From NCBI GenBank assembly GCA_951406725.2, contig OX597814.1, positions 192,510,001 through 192,574,000 of the forward strand: a stretch of DNA of 64,000 nucleotides. The letters run 5' to 3'. The position numbers were made by a program, and so were the translations under genes. Source of the DNA: Octopus vulgaris (lineage: Eukaryota). Below are positions 1,849-50,637 of the stretch, one piece after another (within the stretch, counting starts at the first letter, position 1; each line of letters starts with the position of its first letter). The notes under the pieces are model-generated. The model did no database searches. It was given only the letters and a program-made list of their open reading frames with translations, and was not told where the DNA came from.

Positions 1849-2066
1849 CTGCAATAAATAAATAAACAAATAAATGAATAAATAAATAAAGGGAAATTTC
1901 AAAAGTACAGTGATTGCACAAGAAAGCATGAGAACTTCATCTATGCATTATTAATTAGTTGGAATAAGTAAAGGGGCTTGGAATCTTACTTCAAATTCAT
2001 GGAACTCACTCCTATAACTTCATAAGGATATTTACTTTCTCTAAGATATTTGAAAAACCTATATGT

Positions 2067-2156
2067 GATTTAGCTGATGAATACTTGACATTATATTTGC
2101 TGTAATATTTGCAGCTTGAAATAAAATGTTTATAGTATGAAACAATTGTACTAATC
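2067..2156 (+). ncRNA. Type I minimal hammerhead ribozyme motif (family B), predicted cleavage after GUA at 2150
   Basis: gatttag-CTGATGA-atact...agtat-GAAA-C-aatt-G-TA-ctaatc. Stem I gatt(t)ag/ctaatc, stem II atact/agtat, helix III with palindromic ACAATTGT. Confidence 0.8.
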
Positions 2157-2704
2157 TACCGATCCGTTCTTGTTGCTTTTTTCTTGGGGCTTATATATAT
2201 ATATATTATTATTATTACTATTATTATTATTATTCTATGTTTGACTTTTGCTTTATATTTGTACAAGTTGGCTCCAAGTCTCACCCAGAGACCTCAAGAG
2301 ACAACAGGTTGGAAGTTCATGTTGTTATGCCTAGTGTGCCATATATTTGTTTTTTTTTTTGGTGTTGTACTAGTGAATATCAAAAAAAAAAAAACCGAAA
2401 TTGTTTGTTTTAAACCCTGTTATTATTATAATAATAAAAATAACAGGGTTTAAAACAAACAATTTCGGTTTTTTTTTTTGATATTCACTAGTACAACACC
2501 AAAAAAAAAAACAAATATATGGCACACTAGGCATAACAACATGAACTTCCAACCTGTTGTCTCTTGAGGTCTCTGGGTGAGACTTGGAGCCAACTTGTAC
2601 AAATATAAAGCAAAAGTCAAACATAGAATAATAATAATAATAGTAATAATAATAATATATATATATATAAGCCCCAAGAAAAAAGCAACAAGAACGGATC
2701 GGTA

Positions 2705-2794
2705 GATTAGTACAATTGTTTCATACTATAAACATTTTATTTCAAGCTGCAAATATTACAGCAAATATAATGTCAAGTATTCATCAGCTAAATC
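2705..2794 (-). ncRNA. Inverted copy of the family B hammerhead (sense to the ACOT8 pre-mRNA, intron 3)
   Basis: Exact reverse complement of 2067..2156 within the 2048..2813 palindrome. Confidence 0.78.
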
Positions 2795-2943
2795 ACATAT
2801 AGGTTTTTCAAATTATTATTATTATTATTATTATTATTGTTTTTATCATGTGCTTTCACTGCACCATCAAGTGCAGCTGTGTGTGCCTTGGATATGTGCT
2901 GGGGTTTGTTGAGTTGTTCTTATTTTTACTGTATTGAAAGTGC

Positions 2944-2984
<41 letters not shown>

Positions 2985-3281
2985 TAGTAGATGTAACAGA
3001 GTGACTCAAGGACTGAGAGTTTCGTGTGTTAGCACTAATGTATGAAACCCTCAGCCGTTGAGTCACTCTGTTACTCCTACCAAATATAAATAAAATATAT
3101 ACATACATACACACTCATATTTTGAGTTTATATTTTCATGTTTGCATCACCAGACTCTTGTTAGTTAGTTAGTTAATTTGGCTCAAAAGCAAATAGCAAG
3201 GCCATGTAGGGGGACATGGAGTTAAGTACAGGGTGGTGTTCATGTAAAGAGTTCAGGCCACTTGAGGTCCAGGGAGGCTTT

Positions 3282-3315
<34 letters not shown>

Positions 3316-3386
3316 TACAGCATAGAAAAGACAAATAAGAAAGTCACCAATACTCATACATATAATATATACAGAAAATGTCCATA

Positions 3387-3551
3387 GGCGCAGGAGTGGC
3401 TGTGTGGTAAGTAGCTTGCTTACCAACCACATGGTTCCGGGTTCAGTCCCACTGCGTGGCACCTTGGGCAAGTGTCTTCTACTATAGCCTCGGGCTGACC
3501 AAAGCCTTGTGAGTGGATTTGGTAGATGGAAACTGAAAGAAGCCCGTCGTA

Positions 3552-3601
<50 letters not shown>

Positions 3602-3822
3602 CGTGTATGTTTGTGTGTCTGTGTTTGTCCCCCCAACATCGCTTGACAACCGATGCTGGTGTGTTTATGTCCCCGTCACTTAGCGGTTCGGCAAAAGAGA
3701 CCGATAGAATAAGTACTGGGCTTACAAAGAATAAGTCCCAGGGTCGAGTTGCTCGATTAAAGGCGGTGCTCCAGCATGGCCGCAGTCAGATGACTGGAAC
3801 AAGTAAAAGAGTAAAGAGAGAG
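3387..3822 (+). mobile_element. Abundant SINE with internal (TA)n(TG)n tract. Copies at 16551..16853-, 29619..30020+, 30515..31196-, 45084..45466-, 53603..54197+, 54704..55100+, 58740..59472-, 61444..61768-
   Basis: Head ggcgcaggagtggctgtgtggtaag...ggttcagtcccactg, ttgggcaagtgtcttct core, tail gaaacaagtaaaagag. Confidence 0.85.
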
Positions 3823-4059
3823 TATAGCTGTTGAATATATGTGGCTTGGTGATGTAACAACACTAAGTACAATGTGTAAATATATCTTAACTGTATATAT
3901 ACATACATGATATATTTGAAAAGATTTGTTTCAATAACTACATGTTTATATGATAAATATCCATCATTCTATTAGCAACAGAAACCTAAATAAATGTTTA
4001 AGATGAAGAAAAAATATTGTGTTTGTAATTACATTTTGAAGGATATATATTATATTGAA

Positions 4060-4460
4060 CTAGCAGTATCGCCCGGCGTTGCTCGGGTTTGTAAGGGAAA
4101 TAACTATATAAGCATTTTTAGAGAGTTATAGCCAAAAAATAGCAAAAAAATGCATTAAAAATGGGAAAAAAATTATGGTAAATTTTTTTTAAATCGTTGA
4201 CTCATCGTAGACATTTTTAGAGAGTTACTTCCCTTATATAATAGCGAAAAAATGCATTAAAATGGAAAAAAATGATGGCAAATTTTTTTTTTAAATCGTA
4301 GACTCATCGTAGATGCGCGCTAATACCCAGAAGGGCTCGATATGAATCACGACTATAGGATACCCGCTTTTGGTTAAACTGCACTGCAAAATGTGGGAGT
4401 AGTTAGGAATCTAAATCGTAGGAGACAGACAGCACACAACCTTACTTTTATATATAAAGA
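4060..4460 (-). mobile_element. Non-autonomous Helitron
   Basis: On the minus strand: 5' TC, 3' hairpin cccgagcaacgccggg plus CTAG, inserted between A and T. Same family as 18521..18829. Confidence 0.8.
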
Positions 4461-4835
4461 TTAAACTGAAGTAATAATTTTATAAACTCTTTTTTCTGAG
4501 GAATCAGGATATTCTTGAAAGATGTTCCTGTATGAATTTTTTTCTCCATAAATGGTGAAAAGTATAAGAATTCAACAGGAAGGAGAGGATACTTATGAAT
4601 ATATAAATGTGTGAGTGTGTGGTGGGTAGACACAGGCATGGCTCTTGGTGAGGGAAGAGCTGAGTAATTGAGATGTTCAACTCCCAACCACATGATAGAG
4701 ATAAGGGTTACTGAAAAGTAAGTAAAGGAGGAATTGGAGGATGTGAAGCTGCTGGAGGGGACAAAAATAGTAGCCCTGGCAGTAAAGATAGCTACATACG
4801 TGCACAAACATATACATAATTACACCCACATACAG

Positions 4836-4891
<56 letters not shown>

Positions 4892-5171
4892 TCACTCACA
4901 CACACACTTATGCACACGTAAATATTATATATAAATTCAAAAGGGTATAAAATACCACATGCTAAAATCAGAGCCAATGCTCCAAAAACGACCATAAAAC
5001 TCACAATAAAGACACATACGAGCAATGCAATGAACATAGGAGAAACAGTAATGGTGTGAACTTGTGAGAAATAACAGTAATAATACTATATATATATATG
5101 TGTAATAATAATAATACTATATATAGTAATAATATATATATATTTATATATATATATATATATATATTGTG

Positions 5172-5221
<50 letters not shown>

Positions 5222-5270
5222 AATAATATATATGTATATGCATATATACATATGTATATGTACATACATC

Positions 5271-5322
<52 letters not shown>

Positions 5323-5910
5323 TATGTGAGCACAGGGTGTCATGAAACATGTACAACAAAAAAGTATGAAGCATGAGTACATGGAACATGAACTATTCTT
5401 TCGAACAACAAAGACACAAATCATCATCATCCTCATCATCGTTTAATGTCTGCTTTCAATGCTAGCATGGCTTGGACGATTTGACTGAGGTCTGGCGAAC
5501 CAAATGGCTGCACTAGGCTCCAATCTTGATCTGGCAGAGTTTCTACAGCTGGATGCTCTTCCTAACGCCAACCACTCCGAGAGTGTAGTGGGTACTTTTA
5601 CATGCCACCGGCACGAGGGCCAATCAGGCAGTACAGGCGATGGCCACGCTCAAATGGTGTTTTTTATATGACACCTGCACAGGAGCCAGACCTCGTTTGA
5701 ATATTTTTAAATGGAAAACAAAACAAACATCATAAAGAACAACCCTTCATCAGTTGTTGGCTGGTTTTCTAACCTTGTATTTCGAGCATTTAACAACAAT
5801 ATATATATATATAATTATTAGTATTATGGAATTTATTTCCGAGTCAACAAGAAAGAGAAATTCAATTTAGTGGTACTAAAATGCATTTCCCACTGTATTT
5901 TAAATACATA

Positions 5911-6089
5911 GATAGGTTTAAGAGACAGAACCACCTTCAAGCAACTCAATCAATATTGAACGACATTATCTATGATAGAGATATATAAGATTAAATATTT
6001 GATATTCAATCGTATATATCTCTATCATAGATAATGTCGTTCAATGTTGATTGAGTTGCTTGAAGGTGGTTCTGTCTCTTAAACCTATC
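5911..6089. repeat. Fold-back palindrome, 77-bp arms (1 mismatch), next to (TA)n
   Basis: gataggtttaagagacag...gagatatata and its reverse complement; coordinate sum 12000. Confidence 0.9.
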
Positions 6090-6093
6090 AATC

Positions 6094-6126
<33 letters not shown>

Positions 6127-6175
6127 AAGAAAATGAGATGACAAAGGAAAAGATGATTATCTTATGAACTTCATT

Positions 6176-6258
6176 AGCTTACAACTGTTTCTGCAATAAG
6201 ATGCAATGGATTCGTAGTTGAGTGCTTGAATAACACCCCTTATAGCTTCATCAGAACC
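6176..6258 (-). ncRNA. Type I minimal hammerhead motif (family E), slightly degenerate
   Basis: Minus strand ggtt-CTGATGA-a-gctataag...cttattgc-a-GAAA-C-agtt-G-TA-agct. The element is bounded by (TA)n on both sides (about 6093-6119 and 6325-6362). Confidence 0.65.
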
Positions 6259-6320
6259 TTGATTATGAAGTGTAATTTATTTGGGAAAAGAACTATGTTT
6301 ATGCATATATAGGGGTATGT

Positions 6321-6368
<48 letters not shown>

Positions 6369-6379
6369 TATATAGAAGG

Positions 6380-6430
6380 AGCTTCTACAGGACTAGAACT
6401 GTTTCATTCAAGAGAAATCTTCAGGAAGCT
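6380..6430 (-). ncRNA. Type I hammerhead motif (family F), sense to the ACOT8 pre-mRNA
   Basis: Reverse complement of the 51-nt motif at 7667..7717. Confidence 0.8.
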
Positions 6431-7036
6431 AGTTAACAAGAATTGTATTGGCATTTATACATTTAGGCAGGTTTATAGGGGTGGTGGTGGGGGACTTTTT
6501 GGGGGTAGGCATAGCGCAAAAAATCATACTTGGGGGAGTGGTCAAGGAGTCAGTGGTAAATTAGATAGAAGAATAAATAAAAGAATAAAAAAAGAATAAA
6601 AAAATATAAAATTATATAGAAGAATAGAGTTTTAGGTAAATAAGGAAATTCTCAACACACACACGTATGTGTATATACGTGTATGTATGTAGATGTATGT
6701 ATGTATGAATATAATGCGTGCGTGCGTGTATGTGTATGAGTGTATGAATGAGAGTGTGTGTGCGTGCTAATGAGTGTGCGTGCGTGAGTGAGTGCTTGTG
6801 CTCAAGTAGAAAGATAAAAGGGACTAGCCAAGATGTTTGTGACCAGCGGTCAAAGATAACAAAAGTAATAAATGAAGATAATAAAATTAAAATTAGGGAA
6901 TGGGTTTGTAATTGTATGTATATATGTGTGTATGTGTAGGTATGAATAGGTACACATATGTATGTATGTATGTGTATATATGTGTATGTGTGTGTGTGTA
7001 TACATACATATATGTGTATGAGTGGGTACACATATG

Positions 7037-7097
<61 letters not shown>

Positions 7098-7301
7098 ATA
7101 CATACATATATGTGTATATGTATATATGAGTATATAGGGACTTGTGTGTTGTGTGTGCATGTGTGTATGTGGATATGTGTGTGTATGTGAGTATGTGTAT
7201 GTGTGTGTATGTATATATTTCTTTGTGTGTATGTGTGGTCGTGTGTGTGTATATATACATGTGTGTGTGTATATGTATATGCATGTATATGTGTATGTAT
7301 G

Positions 7302-7332
<31 letters not shown>

Positions 7333-7357
7333 ATATGTGTAGATATATGTATGTATA

Positions 7358-7400
<43 letters not shown>

Positions 7401-7666
7401 GTTGTGTGTGTATGTATGTGTGTATGTATATGTGTGTGTGTTGAGAATTTCCTTATTTACCTAAAACTCTATTCTTCTATATAATTTTATATTTTTTTAT
7501 TCTTTTTTTATTCTTTTATTTATTCTTCTATCTAATTTACCACTGACTCCTTGACCACTACCCCAAGTATGATTTTTTTGCGCTATGCCTACCCCCAAAA
7601 AGTCCCCCACCACCACCCCTATAAACCTGCCTAAATGTATAAATGCCAATACAATTCCTGTTAACT

Positions 7667-7717
7667 AGCTTCCTGAAGATTTCTCTTGAATGAAACAGTT
7701 CTAGTCCTGTAGAAGCT
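7667..7717 (+). ncRNA. Type I hammerhead motif (family F), predicted cleavage after GUA at 7711
   Basis: agcttc-CTGAAGA-t-ttc-tctt-gaa-t-GAAA-cag-ttctagtc-ctg-TA-gaagct. Perfect 6-bp stem I, 3-bp stem II, helix III cag/ctg. Confidence 0.82.
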
Positions 7718-7800
7718 CCTTCTATATAATAAATTAATTTTACTCTGCTATGTATTGAGTACCTTATTTACTGTGGTTAACCCCGAATCAACCCGGGACC

Positions 7801-7843
<43 letters not shown>

Positions 7844-7976
7844 TCATCATCATTTAGCGACCGCTTTCCATGCTAGCATGGGTTGGACGGGTCAACTGGG
7901 GTCTGTGAAGCTGGAAGGCTTCGTCAGGCCCAGTCAGATCTGGCAGTGTTTCTACGGCTGGATGCCCTTCCTAACG

Positions 7977-8016
<40 letters not shown>

Positions 8017-8245
8017 GAGGCGCAATGGCCTAATGGTTAGGGCAGCGGACTCGCGGTCGCAGGATCGCGGTTTCGATTCTCAGACCGGGCGTTGTGTGTG
8101 TTTATTGAGCGAAAACACCTAAAAGCTCTATGAGGCTCCGGCAGGGGGTGGTGATCCCTGCTGTATTCTTTCACCACAATGGCGGTGCCCCAGCATGGCC
8201 ACAGCTCAAGAGCTGAAACTGGAAAAACAAAAACAAACAAAACAA
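8017..8245 (+). mobile_element. tRNA-derived SINE. Copies at 11302..11680+, 23395..23580-, 46750..47046-, 60770..60946-, 62950..63227-
   Basis: A box tggcc(c/t)a(g/a)tggttagggc and B box ggtttcgattc(c/t)c, with a shared body. Confidence 0.8.
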
Positions 8246-8319
8246 TATAATATATATATGTATATATATATATAAATATATATATGTATGTATATATATT
8301 CACACACATGCACTTACAC

Positions 8320-8354
<35 letters not shown>

Positions 8355-9095
8355 TCAAACAATGATATAGTCATAAACATGTGTGCATGCACCCCCCCCC
8401 ACACACACACACACACAGGTATGCATGCATAGTTAAGAAGTCTGCTTCACAACTAAGATTTCAAGTTCAGTCCCACTTCATAGAAGCTTGAGCAAGTATC
8501 TTTTACTATAGACCTGGACTGTCTAAAGCCTTGTGAGTAGATCTGATAGACAGAAACTGAAAGAAGCATGTCATGTGTGTATGTAGAAGTATGTATTCAA
8601 AACTGTCCAAGGGTGGTCGTGCACATCTTTACATTTCCTCAGTCACCCCGCAAAGCCATTAAAAAATCAATAGAAGTGACTTTTTTGTGAATTTTCTATC
8701 CATAACCCAATCAAAATGCCCGAAACTTGATACACCAATTGAATGCCAGCTAGCTGTATGTGATTGGTCAGAGATTTGGACAGTACTCGCATGTATGTGC
8801 ACACACACGCAGCTGTATATGGATGCATTAGCACTATGACCCGGCGTTGCCAGGTCATAGTGCTAGTATCAGATAAATTAGTAAGAGAATGGCCCATAGC
8901 AAAATGTCAGCAGTTTGTATCCCACTGCTAGTAGATCACTATGTCTATAGCAAAAAGACTTCAATTTCAAACAGCATATTCCACACAACTATAAATACAT
9001 AGCAAGGTATAGCACACCAGAGTACACTACTGCAGGCAGTGCATGCACTAACTATTTGATGTTTTGTTAACAAAATATTAAAAGATTATATAAAC

Positions 9096-19459: not shown

Positions 19460-20533
19460 CAGGGGTGGGACAAAATAATGGAAACACCTAGTATCATAGC
19501 ATCATAGTTTTGAAATACCTATAAAACCATCAAAAGCTTGTTTATTTTTATGTTTTTTTAATTATTATTAGTGTTACTTCAGATTTTTTTGCTAAAATTG
19601 CTGTTTCTTTTCAGATATCATCAGAAAAAGGTAATTAAAATTCATTAAAATGACAGATCTATCGAACTTTCAAAGAGGTCAAATTGTTGGTGCTCCTAGC
19701 GTAATGAAAATAGCCAAAATGTTTGGTGTATGAAGAAGTACTGTCTCGAAAGTAATGACAGTCTTTGAGAAAGGGGGAAAAACCTCTTCATTAAAACAGA
19801 ACTCCAGAAGAAAACCAAAACTTTCATATAGGGACTGTTGGGCTTTTACATGAATTGTTAGAAAGGACCACAAAAGTACAGCTACCAAAATTACTGCAGA
19901 CCTTAACGATCACCTCGAGAACCCAGTTTCCACAAAAACTGTTCACTGGGGGCTGCACAATGTCAGATTTCACAGGAGGGCTCTAATCAGTAAACCACTA
20001 CAAAAACAAAGATTACAAGGCATTTAGAGAGGAGTAAAACCCTACTGAATTGGTCCCTGGAGCAGTGGAGGAACATTTATTTTCTCGGACAAGTCATCCT
20101 TTACCCTATTTCCAACCACCGGCTGATTATACGTATGGAGACAGCCAAAAGAAGCATTTGACCTAAACTGCCTTCTTCCAACTGCTAAACATTGAGAAGG
20201 ATCTGTGATGATCTGGGGGACTATAACTTGGAAATTTGCCAGCTCAATGGTTTCCCTTCATGGCAGAATTAATAATAAAGACTGTTTAAGCATTTTGGCT
20301 GATCAAATTCATCCTATGGTTGCAGAACTGTTTCAAGAGAGAAACACAATCTTTCAGGATGATAATGCACCAATTCATACAGCTAAAGTTGTTACTGAAT
20401 GGCACGAGGAACGTTCTAGTGACGTTGAACATCTTATCTGGCCACCACAGTCAATATTATTGAACATTTATGGTGCATTTTAGAAAAACAAGTAAGGAGT
20501 CAATATCCTCCACCATCATCACTACAAGAACTG
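19460..20533 (+). mobile_element. Decayed Tc1-like transposon (transposase pseudogene from 19650)
   Basis: ta|CAGGGGTGGGACAAAATAATGGAAAC end. MTDLSNFQRGQIVGA, FSDKS, MIWG, IFQDDNAPIH and WPPQS motifs with stops and frameshifts. Confidence 0.88.
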
Positions 20534-23963: not shown

Positions 23964-24841
23964 AATATATATATATATACATACATACATATATACATAT
24001 ACATATACATACATAGAGACACACACACACACATATATATATATACATATACCCATATATCATCATCATCATCGTTTAACGTCCACTTTCCATGCTGGCA
24101 TGGGTTGGATGGTTTGACTGAGGTCTGCCAAGCCAGTGGGTTGCACCAGGCTCCAATCTGATCTGGTAATGTTTCTACAGCTGGGTGCCCTTCCTCACGC
24201 CAGAGAGTATAGTGGGTGCTTTTTACATGCTACTGGCATGGGAGCCAGTCAAGGGGCACTGGCATCAACTATGTTTAGACGGTGCTTTTTACATGCCATT
24301 AGCACGGGAGCCAGTCAGAGGGCACTGGCATCGACCACATTCAGTTGGTGCTTTTTATGTGCCACCAGCACAGAAGCCAGTCAGGCGGCAGTGGCCACAG
24401 CTATGATTTCAAGATATATATATATATGTATGTATGTATATATATACATACACACTCACACAAACACACACATATCATCACAATGTATCATAATTCTGGA
24501 AAAGAAGAACACTCTAAAACAGGCAGAAGGCCCGAAACTTTTTGGGAGGTGGGGCCCCCACTCGATTAGATTAACCCCAGTACACAACTGGTACTTAATT
24601 TATCGACTCCAAAAGGATGAAAGGCAAAGTCAATCTCAGTGGAATTTGAACTCAGAAAGTAAAGACAGAAGAAATACTGCTAGCCTGGTGTGCTAACGTT
24701 TCTGCCAGCTTGCCACCTTAGAGCAGTAAAGTAATAAAGTTAATGTCGGGCCATAGTGTGACCAATGGTTTCGCATCCACAAAGGCCTTAGCCTCACAAA
24801 CATCTCAGCAGATTCTAAAGAGTTGAATTTGTCTTCAGCTT

Positions 24842-24905
24842 TAGAGTCTGATGAGACATCTGTGAAGCCAAGGCCTTTGTGAATACGAAACCGTTGGTCA
24901 CTCTA
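24842..24905 (+). ncRNA. Type I hammerhead motif (family G), predicted cleavage after GUC at 24899
   Basis: tagagt-CTGATGA-g...c-GAAA-cc-gtt-gg-TC-actcta, with a perfect 6-bp stem I. The inverted partner at 24754..24817 has a mutated core (CTGCTGA). Confidence 0.75.
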
Positions 24906-25521
24906 TGACTCGACATTTACTTTCTAACTTTAATACACACACATACACGTGTGTGTGCGTGTGTACACATACAGGTTTTACATTTGAGTGAGAAAAAGTA
25001 TCTTAGACACAACAGGAAGGTCAGATATGATGGGCCTATTATAAAGAGGGGTCAAGAACAAATATAGTCATCAGAACTCTTAGTTTACAAGTATATCACT
25101 CACATCGCCTTTGTAGTCTCTATCCTGACAAGTACATTTGGTTTTCTGAATTGGCTACTGCAAAAACTTATCAAGATGAATGTAAGAACTTAAAACCTGC
25201 TCAGTGTTAGAGGAATTTTGAATATACTTCAGCCAAGGTAACTCAGTTAGGAATGGCAGACAGACAAGATCTGGTGACAAAGAAGTGGACAAGGAAACAG
25301 AACACAGTAATACGTTGATGTCAGGCACGATTCAGTATCAGATGAGTTTGTCAGCCAGGCCTACCAAATACTAAGAATTAACAGCACGGACGACCCAACT
25401 CCTAGTAGCTGACACTTAGATTCACTCACTTTTCTCTGTCTCTCTGTGTAGATCTTTCTCATTTGCACATAACTACAGAATCTGTCCAACCAAACCACTG
25501 CACAGGAAAAAAAAAACTTTC

Positions 25522-28164: not shown

Positions 28165-28648
<484 letters not shown>

Positions 28649-28653
28649 GAAGG

Positions 28654-28749
28654 AGCTTCTACAGGACTAGAACTGTTTCATTCAAGAGAAATCTTCAGGA
28701 AGCTTCCTGAAGATTTCTCTTGAATGAAACAGTTCTATCCTGTAAAGCT
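28654..28749. ncRNA. Two family F hammerheads back to back (28654..28704 minus, intact; 28701..28749 plus, two 1-nt deletions) sharing the AGCT pivot
   Basis: Same 51-nt motif as 7667..7717; palindrome centred on gaagcttc. Confidence 0.75.
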
Positions 28750-28832
28750 CCTTCTATATAATAAATTAATTTTACTCTGCTATGTATTGAGTACCTTATT
28801 TACTGTGGTTAACCCCGAATCAACCCGGGACC

Positions 28833-28863
<31 letters not shown>

Positions 28864-30704: not shown

Positions 30705-30740
<36 letters not shown>

Positions 30741-30750
<10 letters not shown>

Positions 30751-31012
30751 TTCGAGACAAAACCACTATTTTGCAAAACAAACAAGGAAAGACTTAATCA
30801 ATGCATAAAAATTTTTAATATAAAGAAATTTAATATAAGAAATTTCTTTATATTAAAAATTTTTATGTATTGATTAAGTCTTTCCTTGTTTGTTTTGCAA
30901 AATAGTGGTTTTGTCTCGAATTAATATTATATAATATTTTACTATAAAATTGGATTTAATCCTAAATCTGATTTTTTCCCTGTAAATTTGGATTTATTCC
31001 CTAATATTTATT
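30741..31012. repeat. Fold-back palindrome (91-bp arms 30741..30930, 1 mismatch, 8-nt loop) plus one-sided tail, inserted in the (TA)n tract of a SINE
   Basis: Coordinate sum 61671; (TA)n on both sides. Confidence 0.9.
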
Positions 31013-31286: not shown

Positions 31287-31329
31287 ACTCCAGACATGTT
31301 TCAGGCTTATAGATTTTCTTCAGTGAAAC
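31287..31329 (-). ncRNA. Degenerate minimal hammerhead motif (family J)
   Basis: Minus strand gtttca-CTGAAGA-aaatctataagcct-GAAA-C-at-G-TC-tggagt. Helix III is the palindrome ACATGT (dimer type); stem II is poor. Confidence 0.5.
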
Positions 31330-31413
31330 TTAGGTCGCACAGTGGCTACAGTAGTCTTAAACCAATAATGATCTGTTATGATGAAGAGACTGAGTGAGGA
31401 GCCCATTTGTGGT

Positions 31414-34479: not shown

Positions 34480-35290
34480 CACAGACATTTAAATTTATAG
34501 GGGTTTTCTGAGGATGTGAGCAGAACTTGTTAGCACAATCTTTTGGATTTCTCTGAGCCATGGTTTTCCTGGGATGTTGTCTAGATGTTTCTGACATCCC
34601 TTTTTTTTATCATAACAAGAGTATCTACAATAATAGGAACAGTTCTTGCTTTGAGATGTCACATCTCTGGTGTTTCAATTTCTAGGTTCTTATATTTACT
34701 CAATTTGTCAAATTCCTTTACAGTTATATTTTTATCAATGTGAACACTAACATTTATTAGTCTACAGCTCTTTTCTTCCTTGTTTTTAATGACTATGTCT
34801 GGTCGATTAGCCTGGATTGTTCTGTTGGTGTTGACTAGAAAATCCCATAGGATGGTGACATTTTTACCTTCACCGACTATCTCAGGATGACGTTCATGTC
34901 ACTAAGCAGGAATGCCGATTTTGTAGTGTCTACATATTTTCCAACGTAAATACTGTCCTACACTAACGTGACGATTTTTGTATTCATTTGTTGTCAGTAC
35001 AGGACATTCTGAGACGAAATGGTCCACTGTTTCATCAGATGTGTCGCAGAATCTGCATTTAGGGTCAGTACCGTTTTGAAGAACGTTAGCCAGGTAGTTT
35101 CTGGTAAGTAGGCTTTGGTCTTGTACTGCCAGTCTGAAACTTTTAGTCTCTGCTATCAGTCCTGAACTTCTCGGTCACTGATGGGTTGTTACTTGGTCTA
35201 CATCGGCATTTTGACTTCAAAGAATATACTGTCCAGTCCATGCAGAGGCTTCTGATTCCACTACCCCTCAATTTGTTTCTGCTCGTTCTT
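34480..35290 (-). mobile_element. R4/Dong-clade non-LTR retrotransposon 3' fragment (restriction-like endonuclease)
   Basis: AVQDQSLLTRNY, CRFC...ETVDHFVSEC (CCHC knuckle), RH, ILWDF, NRPDIV and KY motifs. Confidence 0.82.
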
Positions 35291-36029
35291 TTTTAATTCT
35301 TTTTTGGTTCTTTCTTGTTTGTTATTATTATCATTATTATTAGTATTATTATTATTATTCGCAAGCAGGGCAAAATGCTTAGCGGTATTTCGTTTTCCTT
35401 ATGCTTGTCTCTTTTTTGTTATGGGAATGTTTTAGCAGAAAATTGCGTTAAAGACAAAATATTACGTGCAAAACCCCCAAAATGGACAAACAAATACAAA
35501 CAGCGAAATAAATATGTGTGATTTAATCCTCTTCCATAGTACAAATGTTATTTATAACATTGAAAAAATGTTTCTAGACCTAATACATAATAATTTCTTT
35601 AGCTTACACTGATACGCAAAGACTTTAGTAAAAATACAGTAAAAGTTAGTTATCAGTGCTTCGAAAAGTTTGGTATCCTAATGCAATGAATTAATAAAAG
35701 AAATTGTTCGAATGCAAACTCAACTCAAAAGCAAATACAAACACATTTCGGAGTCACTGTCAAAAATATTCAAGTTTAAGAATAATAAATATAATCTGTG
35801 TGCGTGCATAAAGCTTCAAACTTAGTCATCACTCACAAGTGAGTGGTACCTGATAGACAGACATTCTAGACACTAGTGTAGCTAGAGTGTGTGCCGCCTG
35901 GGGCGGCCCTTCCGTTTGCCGTCCCTGGGCCCCACAAAAAACACATATTGCCAACAGCAAACCCCAAAATGCTCACCCTCCCCAGCTATGCTAATGATTC
36001 TCGACCTTCCTATTCTTAGTCCTGCTCTG

Positions 36030-36449
36030 GGATCTTTTCGGTTTGAACGGCAGTTTTTAACATAATTTCTAAGCAACTAAAAAATTTTAAACTTCGTATA
36101 CTGGTAGAATGTGTTTATAAAACATCTTTTTCTCTTGGCTTTATTGAGAAAATTCTATAGTTTGTAAGATATTTGTCCATTTTTTTTCTTCAATTTCTTC
36201 AATTTCAACCAATCAGCGACGTCTATTGAGGTAAAAAAATGCATTCTGTGCCGTATGAATATGTTCCTCGTTTAAGAAACAGATTGGGTTTATTTACATT
36301 TGTGAAGAAAAAAAGATACCCTTCCCCCACTCCTAACCCTAACCCTAAAACAGATTGAAATGCAATAGATCGATACTAGGGTCATAATTATGGGTGACAA
36401 TTTCATATGACACTGCTAGAAAAAACTGCCGTTCAAACCGAAAAGATCC
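36030..36449. mobile_element. Merlin-type MITE with 8-bp TSD ctgctctg
   Basis: TIR GGATCTTTTCGGTTTGAACGGCAGTTTTT; TSD at 36022..36029 and 36450..36457; internal cctaaccctaaccctaa. Confidence 0.8.
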
Positions 36450-36854
36450 CTGCTCTGCAATGGTGCTCAGCTGGTATTCATTTGCAGTTGAGTAGACTGG
36501 AGTAGCGTGAAATGAAGTGCCTGTTGAAGGGCAAAACGCACCGCCTCATCAAAGAGTCGAACCAATGACTTTAAGACCGTTAGATATTACCCTAAAAACT
36601 CGGCAATGAACCTCGCTCTACATATACAAATACGCATACACATGCATCTATATACATGCACATACGTATGTACGTATGTACACTAGCGTAACTAGAACGT
36701 GTGCCGCCCGGGCGGCCCTTCAGTTTGCTGCCCCCGGACTTCATAGAAGACACATATTGCCTAGAGCAGACCCGAAAGTGGTTTCCCTTTAAAAGTGCCG
36801 CCCAGGGTGGACCATCACTACTGATCCCCCCACCTCACCCCCAGTACGCTAGTG

Positions 36855-38776: not shown

Positions 38777-40055
38777 TATGAGCGTGGGCTGAAAATTCGT
38801 GGGATGACTGTGAAGGAGTGATGCTAGAGCTGTGAAATCTTGCATGCATTAATTTCAGCCCTACTTACTAACCCCGCCTTAGCGTAGGCGGAGGTATTGT
38901 TTGTTTGTTTGTCCATGGACAAGATATCTCAAGAACCGCAGGATGGATTCGGACGAAACTTTCGGGAATGTTTGGCCTCATGACTGGCACAAACTGATTA
39001 GATTTTGGGATCAATCCGGTACCGGACAAGGATTCTGGATTATTTTTCCGATTTTTTTACTTAATTTTTGAGAGCAGTCGGGTTCATTTTTAGTATTCTC
39101 GTTTGTGAGAGCAGTCGAGTTCATTTCAGTATTCTCATTTGAAAAATCATCTCCGTCTAATCGCTGAGAGGACGTTGATGTTGCCTTGGCGGAGGTTTGC
39201 GCTTTCTGAGTGCTCTTGTTAATAATTGCATTGTTTCTTTCCAAGTTAACTGACATCTGACTGTTCAAAGACTTCGAAAGTAACAAGTAGCAACTTCGCT
39301 TGAAAATCGACAAAATTTGGCATCATGGTGTTATCAAGTAATTGTAGGAAAAGGGTTTAGCTCAAAACGACATTCAGGCTAACATGGTTGCTACACTAGG
39401 GAATGACGCTCCAGCTTTATCAAAAGTGTACAAGTGGGCAGCTGAATGTAAGAGGGGAAGGGAGAGTCTTGAAGATGACCCAAGGTTTGGACATCCTGAA
39501 ACCGCCACCACCAAGGAAAACATTGATCATGTTCACCACATGCTGAGGGATAACAGGCGATTGGCTATAAATCAAATAATCAATGCTATTAGCATATCCC
39601 GTGAGAAAATTGAGAATATTCTGCACAATGAGTTTGGCATGACGAAGGTTTCAGCTCAGTGGGTCCCACGTCTTCTGATACCTGATCAAAAGCACACCAG
39701 GCTGATCGTGTCACAAGAAAATCTGACATTATTTCAGGTAGATCCAGCTGGTTTCCTTGAACGTTTCTTAAGCCAGGATGAGTGCTGGGTTCTACACTTT
39801 TTGCCAGAGACAAAAAAAATAATCAGTGCAGTCAAAATACTCCTCCTCACCTGCTCCAAAGAAGGCCAAGATTGTTTCAACAGTAAGGAAAGTGATGGCT
39901 TCAGTTTTTCTGTGATGCAAAAGATGTGTTTATTGACTATCTTCAAAAAGATCACATCATCAATTTTATGGGGTAGTTATGAAAGGCTATCAAGACCAAA
40001 TGCCCAGGGAAAATGATGAAAGGGCCTTCTTTCATTAGAACAATGCTCCAGCATG
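38777..40055 (+). mobile_element. Decayed mariner transposon, interrupted at 38868..39221
   Basis: ORF 39384..40016: HTH region KVYKWAAECKRGRESLEDDPR.G, WVPRLL and QDECWV; decayed H..NAP near 40030. Confidence 0.88.
38868..39221 (+). mobile_element. Helentron/DINE-1-like non-autonomous element nested in the mariner
   Basis: 5' stem-loop ccgcct...aggcgg, a (TTTG)n tract, and a second ggcggagg subterminal repeat near the 3' end. Confidence 0.55.
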
Positions 40056-49331: not shown

Positions 49332-49752
49332 GGATCTTTTCGGTTTGAACGGCATTTTTTTCTAGGGTGTCATGAAATTGTCACCCATAATTATGACCCT
49401 AGTATCGATCTATTGCATTTCAATCTGTTTTAGGGTTAGGGTTCGGGTTAGGGGTGGGGGGAAGGGTATCTTTTTTTCTTCAGAAATGTAAATAAACCCA
49501 ATCTGTTTCTTAAACGAGGGACATTTTCATACGGCACAGAATGTTTTCACCTCAATAGACGTCATTGATTGGTTGAAATTGCAGAAATTGAAGAAGAAAA
49601 AACAACAAATATCTTACAAACTATAGAATTTTCTCAATAAAGCCAAGAGAAAAAGATGTTTTATAAACACATTCTACCAGTATACGAAGTTAAAAAGTGT
49701 TTAGTTACGTGGAAATTATTTTAAAAAACTGCCGGTCAAACCGAAAAGATCC
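49332..49752. mobile_element. Same Merlin-type MITE, opposite orientation
   Basis: Same TIRs and interior. No 8-bp TSD; flanked instead by a 122-bp direct duplication. Confidence 0.8.
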
Positions 49753-49957
49753 AGTAACTCCATAAAACATAAATGCTATGATACTTTGCATACATGATAC
49801 TATATTGTTATTAACGCTATATTTTCATCATCTCCACATTTTGAACTAAATCTTCGTCCCAAATATTGTGGGAAATTATGTACATCTGGCGACATCTGAT
49901 AATCTAGAAACTCATCGTGAAGCATTTTCAATTACATCGCTGAATAAAACAAATAAA

Positions 49958-50389
49958 GGATCTTTTCGGTTTGAACGGCAGTTTTTTTAAAATAATTTCC
50001 CCGTAACCAAACACTTTTAAACTTCGTATACTGGTAGAATGTGTTTATAAAACATAATTTTCTCTTGGCTTTCTTGAGAAAATTCTATAGTTTGTAAAAT
50101 ATTTGTTGTTTTTTTTTCTTCAATTTCTGCAATTTCAACCAATCAGTAACGTCTATTGAGGTGAAAACATTCTGTGCCGTATGAATATGTCCCTCGTTTA
50201 AGAAACAGATTGGGTTTATTTACATTTCTGAAGAAAAAAAGATACCATTTCCCCCACCCCTAACCCTAACTCTAACCCTAACCCTAAAATAGATTGAAAT
50301 TCAATAGATCGATACTAGGGTCATAATTATGGGTGACAATTTAATATGACACCGCTAGAAAAAAACTGTCGTTCAAACCGAAAAGATCC
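49958..50389. mobile_element. Same Merlin-type MITE with 8-bp TSD caaataaa, 248 bp upstream of the TSR3 ATG
   Basis: TSD at 49950..49957 and 50390..50397. Confidence 0.82.
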
Positions 50390-50637
50390 CAAATAAATAA
50401 ATCACAGAATCTTTAATAATATGTATTTTAACTTAATAGGAGATATATTGCACTAAACACTTGATCAGTAATGAGCTGTGAACAGTCAATAACACTGTGA
50501 CCGTCTCAATTCAGCCAAGTTATATCAGAGTTATCTCCCCTCCGTTTTTAATAAGGGAGCATTTAGTTATTTACTTACATTTTGTATACCGTTTATATCG
50601 TAGTCTCTTAAGTTATCTTCGACAGCAGCAATTTATT

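Follow-up and report, generated by a model that had tools for sequence, protein, structure and literature searches.

The insertion at positions 6363-7803 of the window (the whole 64,000-nt stretch of the Octopus vulgaris genome that was analysed) is very probably a recent non-coding insertion made by the machinery of Penelope-like elements (PLEs), in which two start sites of reverse transcription give a head-to-head pair of copies and a hammerhead motif is carried along as a passenger. We call the family F, this insertion copy 1 and a second insertion in the window copy 2. The insertion pattern is already published, and family F is a clean cephalopod example of it. Recently active Penelope elements have been reported from Octopus vulgaris (30 families, 329 insertions; PMC13282606) and activity in octopods also in PMC8967140; a description of octopus PLE hammerheads was not found in the literature.

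Copy 1 lies between two (TA)n runs, to which no strand is assigned. The left run (6326-6362) is 39 nt long if the 2 nt are counted with which it overlaps the arm at its end, and is followed by the left arm (6363-6664, minus strand), an inverted tail-less copy of the 3' region of the element whose outer end is 23 nt downstream of the predicted cut. Then come a spacer (6665-7431, plus strand), the right arm (7432-7734, plus strand), which is a direct copy of the same 3' region, and a one-sided tail (7735-7803, plus strand) of 69 nt which stops 92 nt past the predicted cut and borders on the right (TA)n run of 38 nt (7804-7841). The original prediction had described arms of about 300 bp with two substitutions and one indel, an intact 51-nt hammerhead in each arm, and a 69-bp tail on one arm only, ending in (TA)n, and in all these points it was correct. 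Global alignment of the arms (302 and 303 nt) gives two substitutions (6439/7658 and 6536/7560) and one additional A in the right arm (6518/7579), the identical motif is found at 7667-7717 and in mirror image at 6430-6380, and the tail passes into 38 nt of (AT)n. The prediction had mentioned (TA)n only at the tail, but the left end adjoins such a run as well. At the inner end the match between the arms frays in (CA)n/(TG)n, with a third mismatch at 6665/7431. A target-site duplication cannot be read at copy 1 or copy 2, being masked by the (TA)n.

The spacer is rich in (TG) and (TA), 84% of it alternates between purine and pyrimidine, and it has no coding frame. Its sole non-microsatellite stretch (6790-6912, plus strand, 123 nt) matches the rest of the 64-kb window over no more than 12 nt. 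The spacer may be upstream sequence of the element itself or captured host DNA; for capture from nearby, no donor is present in the window, of which 6.3 kb is available on the left side. A reverse transcriptase (RT) or GIY-YIG endonuclease frame is absent from 6363-7803 and from the 1.1 kb upstream of the tail. Upstream of the right hammerhead there are two TATAAA boxes (7620 and 7638), which are weak, the background in the window being about one per kb per strand. A TAG at 7666-7668 is a possible splice acceptor at helix I, for which there is a precedent in Drosophila virilis (PMC4209133), but such a triplet is too frequent to weigh; the promoter and intron of the Drosophila element are treated in PMC2377424. 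It should be noted that a 12-nt motif at the tail-less end (7719-7730) recurs within the arm 245 nt upstream (7474-7485), perhaps left over from an earlier tandem junction or serving as a recognition motif. The right flank (7836-7978) belongs to an abundant dispersed repeat which starts with (CAT)n and has more than 10 similar copies in the window.

Copy 2 (28638-28835, no strand assigned) consists of (TA)n, a 67-nt inverted tail-less arm, an AGCT centre, a direct arm, the tail and (TA)n. The direct arm carries the hammerhead and a 69-nt tail identical to that of copy 1, and the AGCT centre, common to both arms, is at the 5' end of helix I. Compared with copy 1 it has three single-base deletions and no substitutions; two of the deletions fall within the direct hammerhead, and errors of the consensus, to which a perfect hairpin is prone, may account for them. 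Both copies have the same outer ends, at 23 and 92 nt past the predicted cut, and (TA)n of 22-39 nt is found at all four junctions, whereas the inner junctions differ, the arms being 302 nt in copy 1 and 67 nt in copy 2. Within a copy the two arms begin at the same place: in copy 1 at the same (TG)n edge, in copy 2 at the base that opens helix I, which comes 29 nt behind the position of a TATAAA in copy 1. Priming from two fixed RNA sites yields this combination of fixed asymmetric outer ends and a variable inner truncation. Copy 2 is laid out as a hairpin without a loop, and it is situated 1.3 kb upstream of the exon with the ACOT8 start codon.

Insertions of this type are described for PLEs which carry an endonuclease: inverted truncated copies, a one-sided tail of 30-40 bp and a bias for (TA)n (PMC8557442; PMC8969392). 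Family F resembles the insertions presented by Craig et al. (2021, PMC8557442) and Arkhipova et al. (2013, PMC3846280) in the head-to-head inverted truncated copy (two of two insertions), the tail at one end only (two of two), the junction palindrome (here in copy 2), the (TA)n target and the hammerhead near the 3' end. It differs from them in having no open reading frame, no direct pLTR and a tail of 69 nt, about twice the usual length. These points stand against the PLE reading as far as the two copies go: neither has an RT or GIY-YIG frame, and a direct or partial-tandem pLTR is absent from both, inverted copies being the only ones found. Because the reading frame is lacking we have not filed family F as an autonomous PLE or assigned it to a clade (Penelope/Poseidon, Neptune, Nematis or Hydra). 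The Naiads, which likewise have (TA)n as their target and are present in Octopus, have no canonical hammerheads. Three probe strings of family F gave no match in the supplement of Craig et al. (2021), and exact and gapped searches of metagenome contigs and a gapped search of viral contigs also gave no match, nor an RT-encoding partner with the same 3' end. The original prediction had taken inverted pLTRs and a short extra tail as hallmarks of Penelope. Its anatomical part holds (inverted truncated copy, one-sided tail, hammerhead, (TA)n), but the 300-bp arm need not be the pLTR; its inner end is simply where the inverted copy stops, and in copy 2 the arms are 67 nt.

A close mechanistic parallel is PAc, a Poseidon element of Anolis carolinensis studied by Frangieh et al. 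(2024, PMC11167929). A predicted dimer of the PAc protein cuts both strands of AT-rich DNA and extends them, reverse transcription has two internal start sites whose spacing corresponds to the tail, one of them 85-92 nt past the hammerhead cut, the template is uncut RNA, and the hammerhead needs protein. Family F has the same two fixed ends downstream of a hammerhead, one of them at 92 nt past the cut, an AT-rich target and inserts which span the cleavage site. Feature by feature PAc is paralleled in family F except for the start of the reading frame. In PAc this is in stem II of the hammerhead; for family F a start inside the motif was rejected, as the ATG at 7690 meets a stop after 4 codons. 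The tail of copy 1 terminates at the foot of a weak stem-loop whose loop is A/C-rich, but in contrast to PAc this hairpin is not significant (z -1.24), and we have rejected it as a real structure because it is not above the shuffles. The model of two start sites was shown in vitro for one lizard element, and the two fixed ends of family F match it.

On the pattern of PAc, family F would be inserted as follows. A dimer of a PLE RT-endonuclease would open a (TA)n run on both strands, and each broken end would prime one cDNA. One cDNA would start from the distal RNA site (+92 from the cut) and keep the tail, the other from the proximal site (+23) and have no tail; these steps are modelled on PMC11167929. 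Both cDNAs would stop early and then be joined head-to-head by microhomology or snap-back, with (CA)n as the joining sequence in copy 1 and AGCT in copy 2. The templates would be uncut RNA, and the hammerhead would be a passenger of the terminal repeat. An older model (PMC3846280) explains the junction palindromes by reverse transcription which starts by self-priming on an antisense template; the two copies are compatible with both models and do not tell them apart.

A different proposal for the origin of family F is a dedicated non-autonomous unit of about 140-380 nt, like a retrozyme or a SINE, which is mobilised in trans by a PLE and whose spacer is captured host DNA. It is compatible with the main mechanism too, and we regard it as a possibility to be taken seriously but would not choose it. 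In its favor are the lack of coding sequence in the 1.1 kb upstream of the tail and the coinciding arm starts, at the (TG)n edge in copy 1 and, in copy 2, where helix I begins, 29 nt past the TATAAA; capture between pLTRs is, moreover, known (PMC3846280). However, the head-to-tail tandem which defines retrozymes is found in neither insertion, the window holds no donor of the spacer, and symmetric stops are also given by snap-back or palindrome annealing. Retrozymes are considered PLE derivatives (bioRxiv 10.64898/2026.07.22.740005). The axolotl hammerhead HHR_Amex2 (PMC7229834) and the non-LTR retrozymes resemble family F in being non-coding and PLE-dependent and in having a firmer helix III together with a U-U where helix II begins, but retrozymes form head-to-tail tandems which make circular RNA, whereas family F is head-to-head with its motifs on opposite strands.

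We give very little credence to the reading as a TIR DNA transposon or a MITE which went in at TA and has its hammerhead by chance or by capture, which the original prediction had named as the alternative that would refute it. The long inverted repeats and the fixed outer ends do suggest such an element, and a TA duplication could hide in the TA flanks. A transposase, however, requires symmetric termini. Both copies have 69 nt beyond the repeat on one side only, the arm length is not constant (302 and 67 nt), and a true TIR element in the window (36029-36450) has symmetric ends of 30 bp and an 8-bp duplication. That copy 2 has the same outer ends but a different inner junction fits the PLE pattern and not that of a TIR transposon. 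It is just as improbable that the fold-back is an artefact of sequencing or assembly. Perfect hairpins are prone to error and copy 2 differs from copy 1 only by three single-base deletions, but neither flanks nor spacer are mirrored, the arms of copy 1 differ at 3 sites, and the same pair of ends is present again at a distance of 21 kb. Furthermore, 11 of the 23 public sequencing runs listed contain at least half of the sampled words of 7428-7803; these 11 come from 6 studies with 4 organism labels, one of them possibly the source, and the rows below half were not used. Part of 7428-7803 is contained in 20 of the 23 runs listed, which attests the sequence of the arm and not its arrangement. 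No RNA run is among those listed, which has no bearing on expression.

The consensus of the type I hammerhead consists of C3 U4 G5 A6 N7 G8 A9, G12 A13 A14, the pair A15.1-U16.1, H17 and three helices. The family F motif has this core and the three-helix layout (numbering scheme as in PMC4209133). In the right motif (7667-7717, plus strand) helix I is 7667-7672/7712-7717 (6 bp), the core CUGAAGA is 7673-7679 and GAAA 7692-7695; helix III is 7695-7698/7707-7710, with 4 bp and an 8-nt loop centred on CUAG. N17 is A7711, the last base of a GUA triplet, and the cut is predicted after 7711. The left motif (6380-6430, minus strand) is in the sense of ACOT8, with C3 at 6424 and N17 at 6386. The helix II region of 12 nt begins with U10.1-U11.1, followed by a 3-bp stem; the G10.1-C11.1 pair, highly conserved but not obligatory, is thus replaced by U-U. 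A scan for the core with helix I (at least 6 Watson-Crick pairs) and helix III (at least 2 pairs) gave 3 matches in the window and none in 200 dinucleotide shuffles. The core pattern alone gave 5 matches, compared with a mean of 0.00 over 100 shuffles; four of the five belong to family F, and the fifth (19601-19624) is without helix I. Rfam gave no hit at the gathering threshold in the whole window, and no hammerhead was among the 97 matches at E<=10 in 5800-8400. The metazoan PLE hammerheads of type I (Cervera and de la Peña, 2014, PMC4209133) have the same topology, an intact core, a palindromic loop III and opposite-strand pairs; in Schistosoma such pairs of minimal hammerheads are 100-700 bp apart. 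They differ in that helix III ranges from absent to 2 bp, compared with the slightly unusual 4 bp and the 8-nt loop of family F, and in that helix II is long, with G-C and a bulge, compared with a short helix II with U10.1-U11.1 and a 6-bp helix I.

The question whether this hammerhead would act as a monomer, as a dimer or not at all was analysed with a nearest-neighbour model at equilibrium, which has no Mg2+, tertiary contacts or proteins. The exact active fold at 37 C has a probability of 0.018 for 7667-7717, 0.0035 for 7660-7725 and about 1e-4 with longer flanks. In the competing folds the AAGA of the core pairs with UCUU of loop II, and flanking sequence intrudes into helix I and loop III. 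For the 51-mer without flanks the probability of formation is 0.93 for helix I and 0.53 for helix III, and some cutting as a monomer is therefore plausible. Helix III is worth -1.4 kcal/mol as a hairpin and -12.8 kcal/mol as an intermolecular duplex through helix III and the centred CUAG. When two molecules are folded together at 37 C the structure of minimum free energy (MFE) is a swapped double hammerhead, 10.0 (7667-7717) and 6.8 (7660-7725) kcal/mol below two monomers. For 7667-7717 this holds at all three temperatures and for 7660-7725 at 37 and 25 C, but no longer for 7650-7740 or for 7660-7725 at 18 C. Since 105 of 840 permutations of the loop dimerise equally well (p 0.125), the dimer signal in this model is modest.

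The original prediction had held family F to be the best candidate for cleavage as a monomer on account of its 4-bp helix III. The 4 bp are there; the ranking as monomer is not supported, given the fold probabilities, the U-U, the CUAG, the flanks and the pairing with the complement. That the hammerhead is an efficient protein-free monomer by virtue of its helix III, whatever its role at the locus, is in our opinion unlikely. The intact core, the 6-bp helix I and the 4-bp helix III, as well as their formation in the 51-mer, speak for it, and so do two precedents: the axolotl hammerhead, in which helix II likewise begins with U-U and helix III has 2 bp, cuts alone at 22%/h (PMC7229834), and hammerheads of fungal PLEs with a long helix III cut as monomers (PMC4209133). 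Against it are the low probability of the active fold, which falls further as flanks are added, the sequestered AAGA, the centred palindrome of loop III, and the cut site being copied through in all four arms. That axolotl motif, however, cuts much better when dimeric (PMC7229834), and the Anolis PLE hammerhead requires protein (PMC11167929); dimer dependence of PLE hammerheads is treated in PMC4209133 and PMC6765202. All four arms extend across the scissile bond and no tail-only fragment is present in the window, but arms spanning the cut would equally result from a circle closed by re-ligation or from an antisense template. Most likely the hammerhead works weakly by itself and better as part of a dimer or with help from the element's own protein. 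Weak cutting at high Mg2+ appears likelier than efficient cutting by a protein-free monomer, and a silent or partner-requiring motif looks more likely than a sole cutter. The variant sits between the dimer-only and the monomer types, and is a cheap construct for the question of what role PLE hammerheads have.

Copy 1 is inserted in a 7.2-kb GT-AG intron (1849-9095, minus strand) that separates coding exons 3 and 4 of an ACOT8-like gene. The coding exons, found with tblastn on the minus strand, are at about 27319-27239, 14801-14661, 9319-9096 and 1848-1689. A 48-aa exon (14803-14660) used as query retrieved 7 proteins, the best of them 94% identical, named ACOT8-like and coming from Argonauta hians. 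With this protein tblastn gave 76-85% identity on three exons, and it has thioesterase II domains (Pfam PF02551/PF13622). The claim that the minus-strand copy of the motif is in the sense of ACOT8 is borne out by the four minus-strand coding exons and the intron 9095-1849. The element had also been called young, and it is: 2 substitutions in 302 nt between the arms correspond to about 0.9 My (range 0.1-3.3) at a rate of 0.09 substitutions per 25 My (PMC13282606). Gene conversion between the arms could make the apparent age of copy 1 too young.

The arms being head-to-head, transcription of either strand reaches the antisense arm before the sense arm, and the motif should therefore emerge into a 300-bp duplex. 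In growing minus-strand transcripts the MFE structure has all 51 nt of the hammerhead paired with the earlier arm, and the plus strand gives the same 51 of 51; about 235 nt of the sense arm emerge ahead of the motif, and the duplex of the two arms amounts to -526 kcal/mol. With the two motifs on opposite strands there can be no dimerisation in cis. Judged by these folds, the hammerhead at the ACOT8 locus is probably silent, shielded by its complement, and the main RNA consequence for the ACOT8 pre-mRNA is likely to be an intronic dsRNA hairpin, which may undergo editing or give rise to small RNAs, and not a cut. An exapted intronic ribozyme which regulates ACOT8 by cutting its pre-mRNA could be imagined from the sense orientation and the 7.2-kb intron. 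We find this hardly believable: the insertion is young (2 substitutions in 302 nt), one of the two orientations in a fold-back is sense by necessity, and the complement is transcribed before the motif.

The shielding suggests a more general idea, namely that a hammerhead capable of acting as a monomer, and also of dimerising, has in the head-to-head insertion a safety catch, so that it is tolerated in introns. Fold-backs would be tolerated where a lone sense copy would cut because the complement always precedes the motif. As a general rule we consider this rather improbable, and no report of hammerhead shielding by head-to-head insertion was found in the literature. If it were true, cephalopod introns should contain an excess of fold-backs relative to lone sense copies, and every fold-back would offer A-to-I editing a dsRNA substrate of 300 bp. 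Family F might in addition be a short TATA-driven non-autonomous RNA beginning at helix I, with two RT starts 69 nt apart. The idea of shielding opens the way to a genome-wide test of orientation.

The window contains further fold-backs and repeats. A fold-back at 5813-6099, 260 nt from copy 1, has arms of about 98 nt (93%) and an 88-nt one-sided extension and lies between two (TA)n runs; its anatomy is that of family F but it has no hammerhead, and a second copy is absent from the window. In the same ACOT8 intron there is a near-perfect palindrome of 766 bp (2048-2813, 99%) with a hammerhead-like motif about 25 nt inside each outer end, which has a long helix II region and a palindromic CAATTG helix III. 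These motifs read inward, opposite to those of family F, and because the motif precedes its complement on the ACOT8 strand it is a better candidate than that of family F for cutting during transcription, provided that it folds; the MFE structure does not give the hammerhead fold. In a diverged palindrome (24727-24932, 79%) the plus strand holds an intact hammerhead-like motif (C3 at 24848, helix I of 6 bp), located in the first coding intron of ACOT8 and antisense to the gene. A palindrome of 206 bp (30733-30937, 96%) adjoins (TA)n and has no detected hammerhead, and a lone minimal hammerhead-like motif on the minus strand (31293-31330) has a 7-bp helix I and a palindromic CATG helix III. Decayed fragments of a non-LTR RT (PF00078; 40581-41499), a mariner-like HTH (39348-40016) and a zf-RVT (34902-35174) are unrelated to family F. 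The TIR element at 36029-36450 is 422 bp long and presumably hAT-like, and a 1-kb palindrome at 49332-50390 consists of two inverted copies of it.
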